From the IMG/VR virus record IMGVR_UViG_3300013121_000046: DNA of 64,000 nt. One strand, given 5' to 3'. Source of the stretch: a virus. Lineage: Duplodnaviria; Caudoviricetes. Below the pieces are notes generated by a model. It did no database searches. It was not told where the DNA came from and was given only the letters and a program-made list of their open reading frames with translations. Below, piece by piece: positions 13,430 to 57,879 of the stretch. The stretch's first letter is position 1; every line of letters begins with the position of its first letter. Position numbers and translations under genes: made by a program.

Positions 13430-13726
13430 TCACTCATCCTCTCCCCTCTTTTTTTGTTCTCGAATAAGTTGCTCTAGAACTTTGCGAGGACAGTCGGCGG
13501 CATGATTTTCTTCTTCAAAACGAACCCACTCACAACAGCAGGCACGGCACGCATAGCCAGTAATACGTGCATGTGAATACGTATTACTGTCCCTGTCCAC
13601 GCACGAGTACTCGGTTTCAACATTGTCATCCTCGACCAGCAGCCTCTCTACAACATCAATAATTTTTTCTTTCCAACTCTCCAACTCAACCAATCTCGCC
13701 GAGCCTAAGTGGGTGTTGTCACTCAC
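13430..13726 (-). CDS. hypothetical protein (Cys-rich)
   Basis: GTGA overlap with the pentapeptide gene; CxxC...H...C. Confidence 0.6.
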   Translation of the reverse strand: MSDNTHLGSARLVELESWKEKIIDVVERLLVEDDNVETEYSCVDRDSNTYSHARITGYACRACCCEWVRFEEENHAADCPRKVLEQLIREQKKRGEDE

Positions 13727-14379
13727 TGCTTGACCCCCACTTCCTCGACAATCACACTCAAATCCCACCCCCGAGTCTTAGCCATTTGCCGCAGGTTGGA
13801 CAACATGGCCATCCGCTCGGCCTCGAATGGACCGCCTTCTTCGCGGATAAGCTGCTCGACCGCATCAATCGCAACGTCCCAACACCCCCCGCGAATTCGC
13901 CAGCCTCGCGACGTGTCCCACCACAAAAATACCCGATAGCCGTTTGAGAGGATGCCGCCATCCAGAATGCGGTTGTCGCCGCAATCCGCGCCGGCGAAGT
14001 TGGCTTGCCTGAAATCAGCACGCGAGATATAAGCCCTCGCGAGCGCGGCCAGCGTGAGATTAGCCATCGTGAGATTAGTCATCGTGAGATTAGCCATCAT
14101 GAGGCCAGCCCCCGCTAGATCGGCCCCTGTGAGATTAGCCCCTGCTAGATTGGCCCCCGCGAGATTGGCCCCTGCTAGATCAGCCCCTGCTAGATCCGCC
14201 CCCGCGAGATTGGCCCACCTGAGATCGGCACCCGCGAGATCGGCCGCGCGTAGGCTTATTCCCGCCACTATCGCCTTCCTTATCGCCGCTCCCAGGGCCT
14301 CGGATCGGCTTAGCCCTTTGGGTACGTGGCAGGAGTACAGGACGGCTGCGGTGCGCCTGTGCAAGATTTTGACATTCAT
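13723..14379 (-). CDS. pentapeptide repeat protein
   Basis: Tandem A(D/N)LxG pentapeptides; ATGA overlap with the DUF5131 gene. Confidence 0.9.
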   Translation of the reverse strand: MNVKILHRRTAAVLYSCHVPKGLSRSEALGAAIRKAIVAGISLRAADLAGADLRWANLAGADLAGADLAGANLAGANLAGANLTGADLAGAGLMMANLTMTNLTMANLTLAALARAYISRADFRQANFAGADCGDNRILDGGILSNGYRVFLWWDTSRGWRIRGGCWDVAIDAVEQLIREEGGPFEAERMAMLSNLRQMAKTRGWDLSVIVEEVGVKQ

Positions 14380-15230
14380 GGCATCCTTCCGAAGCTCGCG
14401 GGAAACTCTCGCCATTCCCGGCCGTCGAGCATGGCACCGGCCAATTTCTTGCCAACCCGACTGCTCACCGTGCCGTCCTGCCACAGAAAATTATGGCCAC
14501 AGCCTGGATGCTCGCCGCGTTCCGTCGGAACCCACTCGCCCCATTGCTTGAAAAAGAACGGGACGTGCCACTCGCATTGATCGCGAATAGACTTCACCCA
14601 CGCGGGGTGCATCGGGCGCGCATTGGGCCCGCTCTCGCCGCCTACAATGATCCACTGGACGATTTCGGAGAGTTCCCAACTCGGCGACCAAATTCGATCG
14701 AGCGGGCCGAGGAGCGGCTCCGCCGACAGAAACAGGCCGCCGAAGCTGTGCCTCACCGCCTGCGCCTGCGACAGTCTCGTCAGGTACTCTGCGCTCTCGA
14801 CGCTCACGCCGAGCCACGCATTGGGCCACCACTCGCGAGTCGAGGCCAGGCTGACAAGCCGCTCGACGTTCTCCGGCCGCTTGGTCAACAGCAGCCAAAC
14901 GAGGTGCGGCGTCCGTTCGATCAGTCCGAACAGCCGCCGTCTCGGCACCTCCAAGTCGGGTCGATCCTCGAACACATCGGCCAGGCTCGCGCAAAACACC
15001 AGCCGTCGCTCTCCGGCCAGGTTGGCCGCCCGGTCCCACACCAACGGTTGCCGCCAATAACTCTCAGCCGCTACGACTCGCGTTCCGTCGGGCCCCCACT
15101 CACCGAGCACACGGGGATTGCGCTTGCTCAGCGTCTCCGCGTAGCAATGTTGGCACCCCGGCGAGACCTTTGCGCAGCCACGCCAGGGGTTGAACGTGTA
15201 ATCGGCCCACTCGATTTTTGTTTCAGCCAC
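14376..15230 (-). CDS. DUF5131 / phage Gp37-Gp68 family protein
   Basis: TKIEW...FNPWRGCAKVSPGCQHCYAE, VFCASLADVFE, LLTKRPEN, SAEPLLG, WIIVGGESG, PFFFKQWG. Confidence 0.92.
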   Translation of the reverse strand: MAETKIEWADYTFNPWRGCAKVSPGCQHCYAETLSKRNPRVLGEWGPDGTRVVAAESYWRQPLVWDRAANLAGERRLVFCASLADVFEDRPDLEVPRRRLFGLIERTPHLVWLLLTKRPENVERLVSLASTREWWPNAWLGVSVESAEYLTRLSQAQAVRHSFGGLFLSAEPLLGPLDRIWSPSWELSEIVQWIIVGGESGPNARPMHPAWVKSIRDQCEWHVPFFFKQWGEWVPTERGEHPGCGHNFLWQDGTVSSRVGKKLAGAMLDGREWREFPASFGRMP

Positions 15231-15645
15231 AACCGATCTCCTTGGGCCACTCCGTAACCACCTCGGCTGCAACGTCCAAATACCGCAGTATGTCGTCTAC
15301 CGTACGCCTCGGATGGTCGTGCCAATAACTAAATCTCCCCTTAATTCCCATCACCCTATTGGCTCTGGGGATGATCGTCTCCCTTAATATCCGCTCGACT
15401 CGCTCGCGGTTGTCCAGCAGCAGAAGAGAATGACGGTCGATTGCCAGAAATAACGCCCCCTCGACAGTCCACCGAACGGCGGAATGGTCAATTACGGGGT
15501 GTACCACCCGCCAGTTTTTGTCTACTGCGTAACGCGGATAGCCGGAGCCACGCCGGTTTCGTGTCGAGTACATTCGACACCAGCCCGTCTCAAGGGTTAA
15601 TTTCGCATCCTCGATGATGCTCAGCAGGGCCTTGTTCATGTTCAT
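15223..15645 (-). CDS. hypothetical phage protein (DUF6197-like)
   Basis: GWCR...WTVEGAL...WHDHPRRTVDDIL; similar to 20880-21299. Confidence 0.6.
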   Translation of the reverse strand: MNMNKALLSIIEDAKLTLETGWCRMYSTRNRRGSGYPRYAVDKNWRVVHPVIDHSAVRWTVEGALFLAIDRHSLLLLDNRERVERILRETIIPRANRVMGIKGRFSYWHDHPRRTVDDILRYLDVAAEVVTEWPKEIGCG

Positions 15646-15647
15646 CG

Positions 15648-16016
15648 CTAAACAGCCCCCATCACATAGTAGTCGATACCAACCACCGACTGCCGCCACG
15701 GTGGGACAGACCGAACCGCCGCGATCCGCAAGGCCATTTCGCGATCAAGCCACTCAATCACATGATCCCCGCTTGATGTTACCACATAGACCGGCGAGCC
15801 GGCCTCGCGGAGCTTGCTATCCGTCGCCCATTGGGGCTTGGTAGGCACGTACCCTGGCTGCTTGGCCTCGATCCAGAACGTAAGACCGTGCGGTGGGACA
15901 ATCACCATCAGGTCAGGGAGCCCGGCCCTTTGGGGCAGTACCAGCCATCCGTGGTCGCGCATTTTTTTGGACAACGCCGCGACGATTGTTGATTTTTTGG
16001 GTTCTGTTTTTTTCAT
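15648..16016 (-). CDS. VRR-NUC-type nuclease
   Basis: AGLPDL...FWIEAKQPG..PTKPQ PD-(D/E)xK motif. Confidence 0.8.
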   Translation of the reverse strand: MKKTEPKKSTIVAALSKKMRDHGWLVLPQRAGLPDLMVIVPPHGLTFWIEAKQPGYVPTKPQWATDSKLREAGSPVYVVTSSGDHVIEWLDREMALRIAAVRSVPPWRQSVVGIDYYVMGAV

Positions 16017-45891: not shown

Positions 45892-47337
45892 CTAATCCAC
45901 ACTCACACCCAGTCGATTCCAAAAATTCGTATTATTAGACCTTGTAAAACTATCCTCCAACTGAATACTCCCAGTATCCCAGTCCTTTGTAAACTCACTA
46001 ACCTCTCGATATCGCACAAAGAGAGCCTGCAACTGAGCGGCACTTAACTCTGTAGCATATGCGGAAACTCTACGAAAGATTTCTTGATGCTCAGAATCCT
46101 CCGAATCCACATAGAAATTTCTAATCATGGTCAGCAAAGATTCTCCCTGAGGAGGAAGCATAGCCAACCTAAAATCGCACCGCCCAGGCCTAATTAAAGC
46201 AGCATCCAGACGCTCAGGATAATTCGTGGTCATAATCAGGACACGACCCTCGGTAGCCACCACCCCATCCAGGGCATTCAAAAAAGCTGCAAGAGAAACA
46301 AACTGAGACCCTGACCCCACCTCCTGGGCTAATATCTCCCCCTCATCCGTAAAACCACTAAACTCTTCCTCCGAATGATTAGCCTCTACTCGTTTTCGAT
46401 CTCCATACAAACAATCTATGTCCTCAATCAAAAGGACCGCATTCACCGCCACATTCGACATTAGGTCCAAGAGGGCGGCTTCTGCCTTGACACTACTCAG
46501 AGGGAGAACATAAACCGGCCGCTTAAAATGCGAGGCAATGGCCAAGGCGAGACTCGATTTCCCATTTCCTGGGGGGCCATGTAACAGATAACCTCGACGA
46601 TACGGAATACCCAAATTCTGGTACCAATCCTTTTGGTTAAAGAAAGTCTCTAGATCTCTGACTAAATGGTCCTTATCCTCTTTAGGCATAACCACTGACT
46701 CCAATCGCCGCTCCGGAGTTTCCCTAAGGACCTGCCACCGATTTCCATAAGCCAAAAATACCGGAACAGTTCTCCCCATAGAGTGGGGCCTAAACTGAGT
46801 TAAATTAGACACAAATTCCTTAAAGTGGGCTCTTGACAGACCAAAACTCTTAATGTTAACACTCTTTCGCCGAGAGCCACTATTACCCTCCGGGGTTTCT
46901 TCCACCAGAGTAATCAACAAAGGTCGCTTTTTATACCAAAGGAGATGCCATCCCCAAGAGGGGACTAAACAAATCTTAGGCTCCAATTCCAGATCAGAAT
47001 CATCCATGTAGTTAGTATTCTGCGCAAACTCTTGTGCTATATTGCAGAATTTATCCCTACTAAACTGAGTGACCGTTAAATATCTCCGGGCTCTCTTCGC
47101 TGTATAAGGGTGCTCCGCCAACCAAATGCACATCCAACCAAACGAAGCATCATACTCATAGAGAGTAGCCTCGAAAGAAATCCTAGAGACAAACCAACGG
47201 TACAATTCTCCTGGAAACTTTCTCAGGGAAGCCAGAATCACCCCCAAGAACCCAAGCATCGCCCCCCCAGTGAAGAAGGCGTTACTCTTTAGGGCTACCG
47301 TAGCCTCATTCACCAACGGGGATAGTATTTCCCACAT
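45892..47337 (-). CDS. BCS1-like AAA+ ATPase (N-terminal TM + BCS1_N-like domain + AAA)
   Basis: TM segment NAFFTGGAMLGFLGVILA; LVPSWGWHLLWYKKRPL (BCS1_N-like); WYQNLGIPYRRGYLLHGPPGNGKS; LLIEDID; LNALDGV; MTTNYPERLDAALIRPGRCD. Confidence 0.9.
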   Translation of the reverse strand: MWEILSPLVNEATVALKSNAFFTGGAMLGFLGVILASLRKFPGELYRWFVSRISFEATLYEYDASFGWMCIWLAEHPYTAKRARRYLTVTQFSRDKFCNIAQEFAQNTNYMDDSDLELEPKICLVPSWGWHLLWYKKRPLLITLVEETPEGNSGSRRKSVNIKSFGLSRAHFKEFVSNLTQFRPHSMGRTVPVFLAYGNRWQVLRETPERRLESVVMPKEDKDHLVRDLETFFNQKDWYQNLGIPYRRGYLLHGPPGNGKSSLALAIASHFKRPVYVLPLSSVKAEAALLDLMSNVAVNAVLLIEDIDCLYGDRKRVEANHSEEEFSGFTDEGEILAQEVGSGSQFVSLAAFLNALDGVVATEGRVLIMTTNYPERLDAALIRPGRCDFRLAMLPPQGESLLTMIRNFYVDSEDSEHQEIFRRVSAYATELSAAQLQALFVRYREVSEFTKDWDTGSIQLEDSFTRSNNTNFWNRLGVSVD

Positions 47338-48786: not shown

Positions 48787-49059
48787 CTATCTGTCTTTCT
48801 TATCACCCCCAACAAAAAACTTCAAAATGTCGAGTATCATGCTCAGAATAGACAAAAAACTGCATATTACTACCACCACCCCAAGGTACACACACGCAGC
48901 AAAAAAGATTGAATAGCTTAAGATAAAGCCTAAAAACAGCAGGTTCTCAAAGCCTATTCTATAGCACCCCCAAGAGACGAGGCATATGACCACAGACCCA
49001 AACACCACACTTATCGTCGTCCAGAATTCTGACCGCATTCTTTCTTTATAATCCGGCAT
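48787..49059 (-). CDS. small membrane protein
   Basis: Two hydrophobic segments. Confidence 0.65.
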   Translation of the reverse strand: MPDYKERMRSEFWTTISVVFGSVVICLVSWGCYRIGFENLLFLGFILSYSIFFAACVYLGVVVVICSFLSILSMILDILKFFVGGDKKDR

Positions 49060-49113: not shown

Positions 49114-49125
49114 TATACCCAAAAA
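49114..49125 (-). promoter_or_regulatory. promoter motif TTTTTGGGTATA
   Basis: Motif fused to the terminator T-tract. Confidence 0.65.
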
Positions 49126-49177
49126 AAATCCCCACCAGGTTTCAAACTCCTAGAAGAGTCCTAAACCTGGTGGGGAT
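49121..49177 (-). terminator. intrinsic terminator ending the large ncRNA candidate
   Basis: 15-bp IR ATCCCCACCAGGTTT / AAACCTGGTGGGGAT followed by a T-run. Confidence 0.8.
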
Positions 49178-49187
49178 CAAAAAAAGA

Positions 49188-49868
49188 ATGGGCGGCTTTA
49201 GTTGGTTAGTCCGCCCGAGGGTGAAGTACTCCTTTCGGGAGTACCCTACACCGGTGTTTCAAGCCGTTCACCCTCTTGGTCCCTGTTATTGGATTTTAGG
49301 TCCGGGTAACAGCACCCAATTCAGGTTGGTCGCTTCTGACCTTAAACAATCGAAGCCGCTAAACTCCATTGCCATTAGTCAGGTGTCTTTTGCTTCGGGG
49401 GGAAGCGTCCAACACCTCTCTTTCGAGACTCTGCCTGACCTTTCGACCTGACAGATTAGACCCCTTCACAACTCAACCTGTGTACTTTGCCGTAGTAAAC
49501 GGCTTCCCCCAAACTACTATTTAGTATATAGTAATGGAGATTTCAAGTCTCCTCGTCAACCTAAACGCTCGATAAGTACAAATCCGAACGTCCCATAGCA
49601 GAATTCCCTAATTGACGTTAGGTATCTTGCACAGGGCTAACAGCAGGTTATACTCGCGTCACCGAGATTTACCCTGCACCGTAAGCAATCTTGTAAGAGT
49701 GGCTTAACACCCAACCCTTCGTTTCGGGGCTGTCCAAGATTCAGGCTTTACTCTATCCCCTCTAGGAGGGGCAACTTGGGTAGGTTGTTCCCAAAGTCGT
49801 TTTTTCGCCCGAGCACTAGGGGCGATTGGGAAGCATCCAAACTCTTTCGAGTATTGTCTGCTTCCCAT
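49188..49868 (-). ncRNA. candidate large, highly structured non-coding RNA (~680 nt), class unassigned
   Basis: No credible ORF; many helices with GAAA loops (ACTC-GAAA-GAGT, TCTC-GAAA-GAGA, GTACTCC-CGAAA-GGAGTAC, GTC-GAAA-GGT); longer-range stems GAGGGTGAA/TTCACCCTC and TGGGAAGCA/TGCTTCCCA; promoter motif upstream and terminator downstream. Confidence 0.75.
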
Positions 49869-49875
49869 GAACTAG

Positions 49876-49887
49876 TATACCCCAAAA
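49876..49887 (-). promoter_or_regulatory. promoter motif TTTTGGGGTATA upstream of the ncRNA candidate
   Basis: Motif ends about 8 nt before the first helix. Confidence 0.65.
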
Positions 49888-53387: not shown

Positions 53388-53401
53388 TTTAGTGTTCCTC
53401 G

Positions 53402-53448
53402 TATTTAGAATTCTGAAGACACTGAAGTATACCTCAGAATTCTAAATA
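53402..53448. promoter_or_regulatory. 15-bp perfect inverted repeat flanking a promoter-like GGTATA
   Basis: TATTTAGAATTCTGA-N17-TCAGAATTCTAAATA just upstream of the ATPase RBS. Confidence 0.55.
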
Positions 53449-53645
53449 GGAGGGAAAAAAACCCGAAAAATGGAAAAATAGTACAAAAAAAGCAAAAAAA
53501 CCGATATTTAGGCTACCTAGGTTACCTAGATTACCCAAAATAAAAACTACCCCATTCAAGCTCCCCCTTATACCCCCTATTTAGGGATATCAGAGTAGCC
53601 TGAATGGGGTAGTGAAGGTAACTGGCCCGTGTAAAACTTGGTATT

Positions 53646-54224
53646 CTAATCCTCAAACGGATTATCGAACGCTCGAACATACCCCTCCCGCTCAACCTGA
53701 CCCTGGGAACGCAATCGAGCAGCCCAATCCACAAGGTACTGGCGAGTAGTCACGTTAAGCTCCCCAGTACCTGGAGCAGTTTGGGACAGGGCAAAGTTGT
53801 ACCAATCGTCCAAATCTTTAGCCATGAACCCCTTACTGACCAAAAAATCATACCCCCGCTGCTGGTACTCCATATAAGCCAACTCGGCTCCCGAGGGGGC
53901 TCCCTCTTTAGATTCTTTGCGTTCCTTAGAAGACTCGTCCGAATCCTCTTCAGAATCCTCGTCAGAATCCTTTTTGGATTTCCCACTAACCGCTTCGTAA
54001 ACATCCTCCTCTAGGATGGAGGATACTCGATTTGATTCCTGAACCTCCCCAGAAACATCGAAATCCGGATACTGCTGAGCCCAGTAACCAAAGGAACCCA
54101 AGATAACCTGAACCACATGCTTCTCCCAGCCCTCGACTGTACTCTCCAGGACTGCTGCCGGAGAAGAAGTGTCGATGGGAAAAGTCTCCTTAACCTCTGC
54201 TGATTTTTCTTCCTCAGACATCAC
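53646..54224 (-). CDS. acidic hypothetical protein
   Basis: 192-aa ORF with GGAGG RBS. Confidence 0.75.
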   Translation of the reverse strand: MMSEEEKSAEVKETFPIDTSSPAAVLESTVEGWEKHVVQVILGSFGYWAQQYPDFDVSGEVQESNRVSSILEEDVYEAVSGKSKKDSDEDSEEDSDESSKERKESKEGAPSGAELAYMEYQQRGYDFLVSKGFMAKDLDDWYNFALSQTAPGTGELNVTTRQYLVDWAARLRSQGQVEREGYVRAFDNPFED

Positions 54225-57456: not shown

Positions 57457-57521
57457 CTGGATACCCCTCGTTCGCGTCCCCCATTTTATTCTTCCTGTCG
57501 CTGTCTATTTCTATTTTTCAG

Positions 57522-57879
57522 TGGAGGTGGCGGGAGTCGAACCCGCGTCTTGAAATAGTATCAATACTTGGCGTCTACGTGTGTGTCTCTGGGTCTATTT
57601 TCATTCTGGGTAGTGGGGCTCAGAGCGAAGCCGCCACTACCCCTATCTGGCTGTATCTCGACCCCCTAAAGTGCCAGCATACGGGGGATCACACCGAATT
57701 TAGCAACCAATTTTTGAACCCCTTCGGTTGGAGTCCGCAATTGGGACCGCCCAATCACTTAGGCAGCCAGAGCAAAAGTCTCAGCATCTGACGTTTGGTC
57801 GGCTTTTTACGTGGCCCGCTGACCAACCACGACACGCAACCAAATACTCTCACTATTCAATCGAAACCATTTCACCCCC
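57522..57879 (-). ncRNA. ssrA: tmRNA (SsrA), tag peptide (A)AETFALAA*
   Basis: 5' GGGGGTG pairs with 3' CACCTCC(A) with the G3-U Ala identity pair; T-arm GCGGGTTCGACTCCCGC; tag ORF 57785-57759 GCT GAG ACT TTT GCT CTG GCT GCC TAA. Confidence 0.95.

Follow-up and report, generated by a model that had tools for sequence, protein, structure and literature searches.

A putative stand-alone structured non-coding RNA of about 745 nt, without a match to a described RNA family, in an uncultivated jumbo phage

Introduction

To our knowledge, just a handful of very large structured RNAs of unknown function have been described from bacteria or phages. GOLLD is a very large ornate RNA, often longer than 800 nt, that is encoded by phages and prophages, in many cases close to tRNA genes, and has no known protein partner, while ROOL is a large, abundant RNA of phages and prophages that lies near tRNA islands, is highly structured with pseudoknots and has no known function (PMC12286853). 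Both were recently shown to form RNA-only nanocages (PMC12286853).

A locus on the minus strand of an uncultivated phage of jumbo size (contig of 236,349 bp) raises the question of whether phages encode a further RNA of this size and kind. The DNA analyzed was a 64-kb stretch of this phage, referred to here as the window. An earlier note on this DNA had described the locus as an ornate non-coding RNA with its own promoter and terminator on the minus strand, and the sequence bears this out: the analysis supports a stand-alone, non-coding and strongly folding transcription unit on that strand. Its further assignment, as a structured RNA of an undescribed family, was weighed against four other explanations, each of which is taken up below with the evidence that bears on it.

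Transcription unit

The RNA gene extends over 49121-49886 (minus strand) and consists of a promoter motif, approximately 680 nt without coding signal, and a hairpin followed by a U-run. The RNA itself measures about 745 nt, made up of the core of about 680 nt (folded as 686 nt, 49185-49870) and the terminator. The promoter, TTTGGGGTATACT (49874-49886, minus strand), contains a T-run, GGG and the -10-like sequence TATACT. The motif within it (49876-49886), previously noted as the promoter of this unit, proved to be a recurrent element: TTTNGGGTATA is present in 12 copies in the 64-kb window, versus 0.28 expected from shuffles, and 11 of these are on the minus strand, in intergenic positions (992, 18259, 26054, 26324, 27720, 41395, 45260, 48064, 49114, 49876 and 54374). 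Copies stand upstream of tRNA-Phe, tRNA-Lys, the RNA gene, the gene that follows the RNA and several protein genes. TTTNGGGTATA resembles an extended -10 promoter, and no -35 element is shared among the copies.

The motif is located 8-12 nt ahead of the 5′ ends of tRNA-Phe and tRNA-Lys. With TATAYN read as the -10 element, transcription of tRNA-Phe is predicted to start at its 5′ end and that of tRNA-Lys 2-4 nt ahead of the gene; for the RNA, the predicted start is at about 49866-49868, precisely where its first helix has its base. On this spacing both tRNAs would be transcribed with almost no 5′ leader, and the RNA would likewise begin at the base of its first helix, as the tRNA genes of this phage appear to begin at theirs.

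At the other end, an intrinsic terminator (49121-49178, minus strand) consists of a 23-bp hairpin (16 + 7 bp, 49178-49127) followed by a U-run, in keeping with the strong terminator claimed earlier; it was recognized from sequence and fold together, with a predicted pair probability of 0.95. No T-run follows the hairpin on the plus strand, so the terminator is one-way only. It was absent from the list of a simple terminator scanner, an omission that we attribute, by assumption, to the internal mismatch. Directly past the terminator, a motif match at 49114-49124 (minus strand) marks the next copy of the promoter, which serves the small membrane-protein gene downstream (48787-49059). Since a fresh promoter is found there, the RNA unit was taken to end at this point.

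Coding potential

The three minus-strand frames of the RNA region contain 11, 17 and 12 stop codons, with all three stop codons represented. When single stop codons were reassigned, the longest frame opened in the RNA region was at most 87 codons; reassignment was therefore rejected, as no long frame was opened. A codon log-odds score trained on 31 genes of the window gave -0.21, -0.18 and -0.05 for the three minus frames, versus +0.29 ± 0.08 (minimum 0.02) for in-frame pieces of genes. These stop counts (11-17 per minus frame) and negative scores agree with the earlier statement that the region holds no credible ORF. The ORFs of 54, 68 and 93 aa gave no credible match in Pfam or PHROG (best E = 0.064 and 0.31, far from the cut-offs), and tblastn with six-frame read-through translations detected no protein-level paralogue of the RNA region in the window.

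One explanation on which these results bear is that the transcript is a messenger for a small protein, for instance from a leaderless 54-codon ORF at the predicted start, or else a long cis-regulatory leader. An ATG does lie at 49866-49868, about where transcription is predicted to begin. However, the ORF that it opens scored -0.02, against +0.29 ± 0.08 for genes, lacked a credible family match and spans just 165 of the 745 nt, and its ATG is sequestered within a 9-bp helix of predicted probability 0.98. A strong terminator and a fresh promoter also lie between the unit and the next gene. We therefore regard a messenger or leader as highly improbable.

Folding and predicted architecture

Folding strength was expressed as a z-score relative to shuffled sequences. 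For the core without the terminator (49185-49870), z was -4.5 on the minus strand and -4.05 on the plus strand, compared with +0.8 to -3.1 for six coding segments of equal length used as controls and -3.9 for the window's own tmRNA, used as a positive control. The core was thus more stable than its shuffles and, by z-score, than the coding controls, one of which reached -3.1. When folding energy was adjusted for GC content, the core lay only 1.5 SD below the mean of the window tiles (181 minus-strand tiles). Because of this small margin and the well-folding plus strand, energy alone was considered suggestive, not decisive.

The hairpin loops gave the most specific signal. GAAA-capped hairpins are typical of large, autonomously folding RNAs. 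With a stem of at least 4 bp required, 12 such hairpins were found on the minus strand of the 64-kb window, and three of the 12 fall inside the 686-nt core, a density about 31 times that elsewhere (Poisson probability about 3e-4, by our own calculation). The plus strand of the core contains none with a stem of at least 4 bp. Capped hairpins on one strand only, within the core, fix the strand of the RNA, as had been argued before. A fourth hairpin, of 9 bp and with a CGAAA loop, lies in the 3′ domain.

The predicted fold falls into four parts. The 5′ domain (49757-49867, minus strand) is composed of four consecutive hairpins, the first of which has a stem of 9 + 3 + 4 bp capped by GAAA; its helices have predicted probabilities of 0.82-0.99, and the domain as a whole gave z = -6.5 (200 shuffles). 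The central region (49481-49756, minus strand) is predicted to contain several shorter hairpins, together with long-range pairings to the 3′ part; helix probabilities in this region are 0.2-0.97, and the long-range helices are of low predicted probability (0.2-0.5). Complementarity between a loop and a junction suggests a possible 7-bp pseudoknot between UGUACUU (49574-49580) and AAGUACA (49481-49487). An apparent 11-nt tetraloop receptor (CCUAA...UAUGG, approximately 49592-49622) was judged by eye and dropped, as the flanking helices were unfit.

Next comes a domain predicted to be built on a five-way junction (49322-49480, minus strand; z = -3.1), which is closed by the helix CAGGUUG/CAACCUG and holds two adjacent GAAA-capped hairpins, a hairpin with a CCCCC loop and a long G-U-rich hairpin. 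Here the minimum free energy (MFE) and centroid structures are identical, and helix probabilities are 0.70-0.93. The 3′ domain (49185-49321, minus strand) is predicted to contain a CUGUUA/UAACAG hairpin, the 9-bp CGAAA-capped hairpin and a GGGCGG/CCGCCC hairpin with the loop AACCAACUAA. All 12 of the helices that the earlier note had listed are present in the sequence at the place given there. Most were also recovered in the MFE fold, with pair probabilities of 0.6-1.0, whereas three (AATCTTG/CAAGATT, GGAGA/TCTCC and GAGGGTGAA/TTCACCCTC) are better described as possible alternatives that compete with other pairings.

These results bear on the explanation that the region is a non-functional spacer or the remnant of a decayed gene, in which chance hairpins on a G/U-rich transcribed strand are flanked by a promoter and a terminator by accident. 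Such a spacer would be in keeping with a minus strand that folds well throughout, with a core just 1.5 SD below the GC-adjusted tile mean, with the coding control at z = -3.1 and with the failure to find a homologue in the databases searched (below). Against it, genes elsewhere are tightly packed, the recurrent promoter motif and the one-way terminator bracket the unit precisely, GAAA-capped hairpins are enriched 31-fold and on one strand only, the 5′ domain has z = -6.5, and no residual protein similarity was seen in any frame. On balance, a spacer or remnant was judged unlikely.

Search for known families and homologues

The Rfam scan proposed in the earlier note was run with cmscan against Rfam 15 (4227 families), first at the gathering score, where nothing matched, and then with the limit relaxed to E up to 10. 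Neither a 1.2-kb piece containing the RNA nor two half pieces (341-371 nt, searched with relaxed filters) matched any family at E up to 10, the sole signal being microRNA-like noise on the terminator hairpin. The covariance model of GOLLD (RF01998) gave no match at E up to 10 on the 1.2-kb piece or on the two halves, the model of ROOL (RF03087) gave none at E up to 10, and OLE and HEARO were not detectably present in the Rfam search at E up to 10. RNase P RNA was likewise not detected: the bacterial, archaeal and nuclear models, with their P4 helix and conserved regions CR-I and CR-V, gave no match at E up to 10, and no conserved-region sequences were seen by eye. Nor was a group I or II intron detected: no Rfam intron family matched, the genes on either side are uninterrupted, and the unit is bounded by a promoter and a terminator that belong to it. 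The scan agrees with the earlier note, in which the sequence could not be matched by eye to GOLLD or ROOL, nor to RNase P or group I/II introns.

A highly divergent member of one of these classes (GOLLD, ROOL, group I or II intron, RNase P RNA) might nevertheless have been missed by the Rfam models. The size of 680-745 nt, the location in a phage and the nearby tRNA genes all fit the context of GOLLD and ROOL. What speaks against such a member is the absence of any match among the 4227 families at E up to 10, including the 341-371 nt pieces searched with relaxed filters; moreover, an intron should have flanking exons, of which there are none, since promoter and terminator bound the unit, and RNase P RNA should have conserved-region sequences, of which none were seen by eye. 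We consider this explanation very unlikely.

Homologues were sought by several routes. With blastn against 50,697 phage records (GenBank phages), nothing was found at E 1e-5, and at E 10 only matches of 20-27 nt were returned, all inside coding regions. Within the window, no paralogue of the RNA was detected by blastn, by tblastn of six frames or with two covariance models, and the RNA contains no repeats. The route through synteny yielded little, the neighbouring proteins being without close relatives (the best for the AAA ATPase is 34% identical and the best for the M28 peptidase 40%). On the contigs that carry the best peptidase relatives, no RNA-sized gap was seen downstream where that part was visible (one contig is just 1,355 bp), and nhmmer on these loci returned nothing.

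Pattern searches were equally negative. The exact CGAAA-hairpin pattern had 0 matches in IMG/VR. Structure-aware patterns, in which loops were fixed and stems left free, were used for three domains and returned 24, 28 and 16 matches in IMG/VR, plus 48 matches in JGI metagenome contigs for one domain; none of these had complementary stems or a model score. RNA BLAST in 401 Planctomycetota genomes gave chance matches only. Single-sequence covariance models of two domains, which recover their own source sequence, found nothing below E 0.5 in five isolate jumbo phages and three IMG/VR jumbo contigs. In the literature, no phage RNA of such a type was found described beyond GOLLD and ROOL. The status of the RNA, a singleton, accordingly rests on single-sequence statistics.

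Nature and possible role of the RNA

We favor, with moderate confidence, the reading of this locus as a gene, transcribed as a unit of its own, for a structured non-coding RNA about 745 nt long that is represented by a single sequence and would belong to a family not yet described. The suggestion made earlier that it may be a new class is a reasonable conjecture drawn from that one sequence; it does not amount to a demonstrated class.

In kind, the RNA appears closest to GOLLD and ROOL, judging from its size, its location in a phage among scattered tRNA genes and a tmRNA, the absence of a partner gene and the many tetraloops in its design. Like GOLLD, it would be a large RNA in a phage near tRNA genes, here a stand-alone unit of about 745 nt with tRNA genes 1.7 and 4.4 kb away; unlike GOLLD, it has no match at E up to 10 to the RF01998 model, with its conserved 3′ domain and pseudoknots, and is a single sequence. 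With ROOL it shares being a large phage RNA, structured (here by prediction) and near tRNA genes. It differs from ROOL in having no RF03087 match and in its predicted architecture, in which a large multibranch body comes after four 5′ hairpins; moreover, ROOL forms a widespread family, whereas the RNA here is a singleton. The tmRNA and tRNA genes of the window provide a second comparison. They have the strand and the promoter motif in common with the RNA and are predicted to start at, or a few nt from, a structured 5′ end, and the fold z-score of the tmRNA (-3.9) is comparable to that of the RNA core. In contrast to the RNA, they have strong Rfam matches.

In the mechanism that we propose, the transcript would fold into a multi-domain body comprising the 5′ four-hairpin domain, the central region, the five-way junction domain and the 3′ domain, which are probably joined by docking of GAAA tetraloops and by at least one loop-junction pseudoknot. 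It would act in trans, as an RNA, during infection. Context and analogy suggest the role of an abundant architectural RNA of the GOLLD/ROOL kind, that is, a scaffold, cage or decoy tied to the takeover of translation.

Large structured RNAs often function as ribonucleoproteins. The RNA could belong to a protein-RNA machine whose other parts the phage encodes at a distance, and could serve there as guide, template or scaffold for a nuclease, reverse transcriptase or RNP that has gone unrecognized; many of the neighbouring proteins have no known family. However, no reverse transcriptase, TnpB/IscB, Cas or other RNA-guided protein was found within about 5 kb of the RNA, nor any nuclease or defence protein nearby, and the RNA has neither repeats nor similarity to the rest of the window. 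An RNP component is, in our estimate, quite unlikely.

A bolder form of the preferred reading is possible, if unlikely: with this RNA, a third family of giant ornate phage RNAs may stand beside GOLLD and ROOL, its first member about 700 nt in length, autonomously folding and held together by GAAA contacts, which would form RNA-only higher-order assemblies or be catalytic and would act in the takeover of translation. If a deeply divergent jumbo phage encodes one more RNA of GOLLD/ROOL size, unrelated to either, this kind of RNA becomes broader. Because promoter and terminator define the exact transcript, it could be synthesized directly in vitro for probing and cryo-EM.

Genomic surroundings

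All long ORFs of the window are on the minus strand. In addition to the RNA, the window contains six tRNA genes and a tmRNA gene, the tRNA genes nearest to the RNA being tRNA-Val, 1.7 kb downstream of it, and tRNA-Phe, 4.4 kb upstream, and it encodes a BCS1-like AAA ATPase (phrog_7485), a phrog_1250 ATPase, a DNA methylase and an M28 peptidase. The gene for the AAA ATPase lies at 45892-47337 (minus strand); across 5.8 billion protein clusters, the next-best relative shows 34% identity, by which the phage lineage was taken to be a singleton. Its best relatives in isolate phages, about 30% identical, are found in Dolichocephalovirinae of Caulobacter and Brevundimonas and in other jumbo phages.

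The small gene after the RNA terminator (48787-49059, minus strand) is preceded by a promoter motif of its own, has a ribosome-binding site and encodes a hydrophobic protein of 90 aa, with an atypical codon score of -0.04 and no family match. At 13700-15700, a GC-rich island (61%, versus about 43% elsewhere) encodes pentapeptide-repeat, DUF5131 and DUF6197 proteins; the relatives of the DUF5131 protein are just 36-48% identical and spread across many phyla, and thus give no clue to the host.

Of all tiles of the window, the one at 53390-53645 (minus strand) folds most strongly, at 4.6 SD below the GC-adjusted mean. In it, a long hairpin terminator follows the gene at 53646-54224; the tile also has a T-rich stretch, and a palindrome of about 15 bp (TATTTAGAATTCTGA...TCAGAATTCTAAATA) surrounds the promoter motif GGTATACT; from its sequence, the palindrome looks like an operator placed over the promoter ahead of the phrog_1250 ATPase gene. 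A complete phage tmRNA is encoded at 57519-57879 (minus strand), with a score of 130 bits against RF00023 and the tag AETFALAA, and is closely preceded, on the coding strand, by tRNA-Pro.
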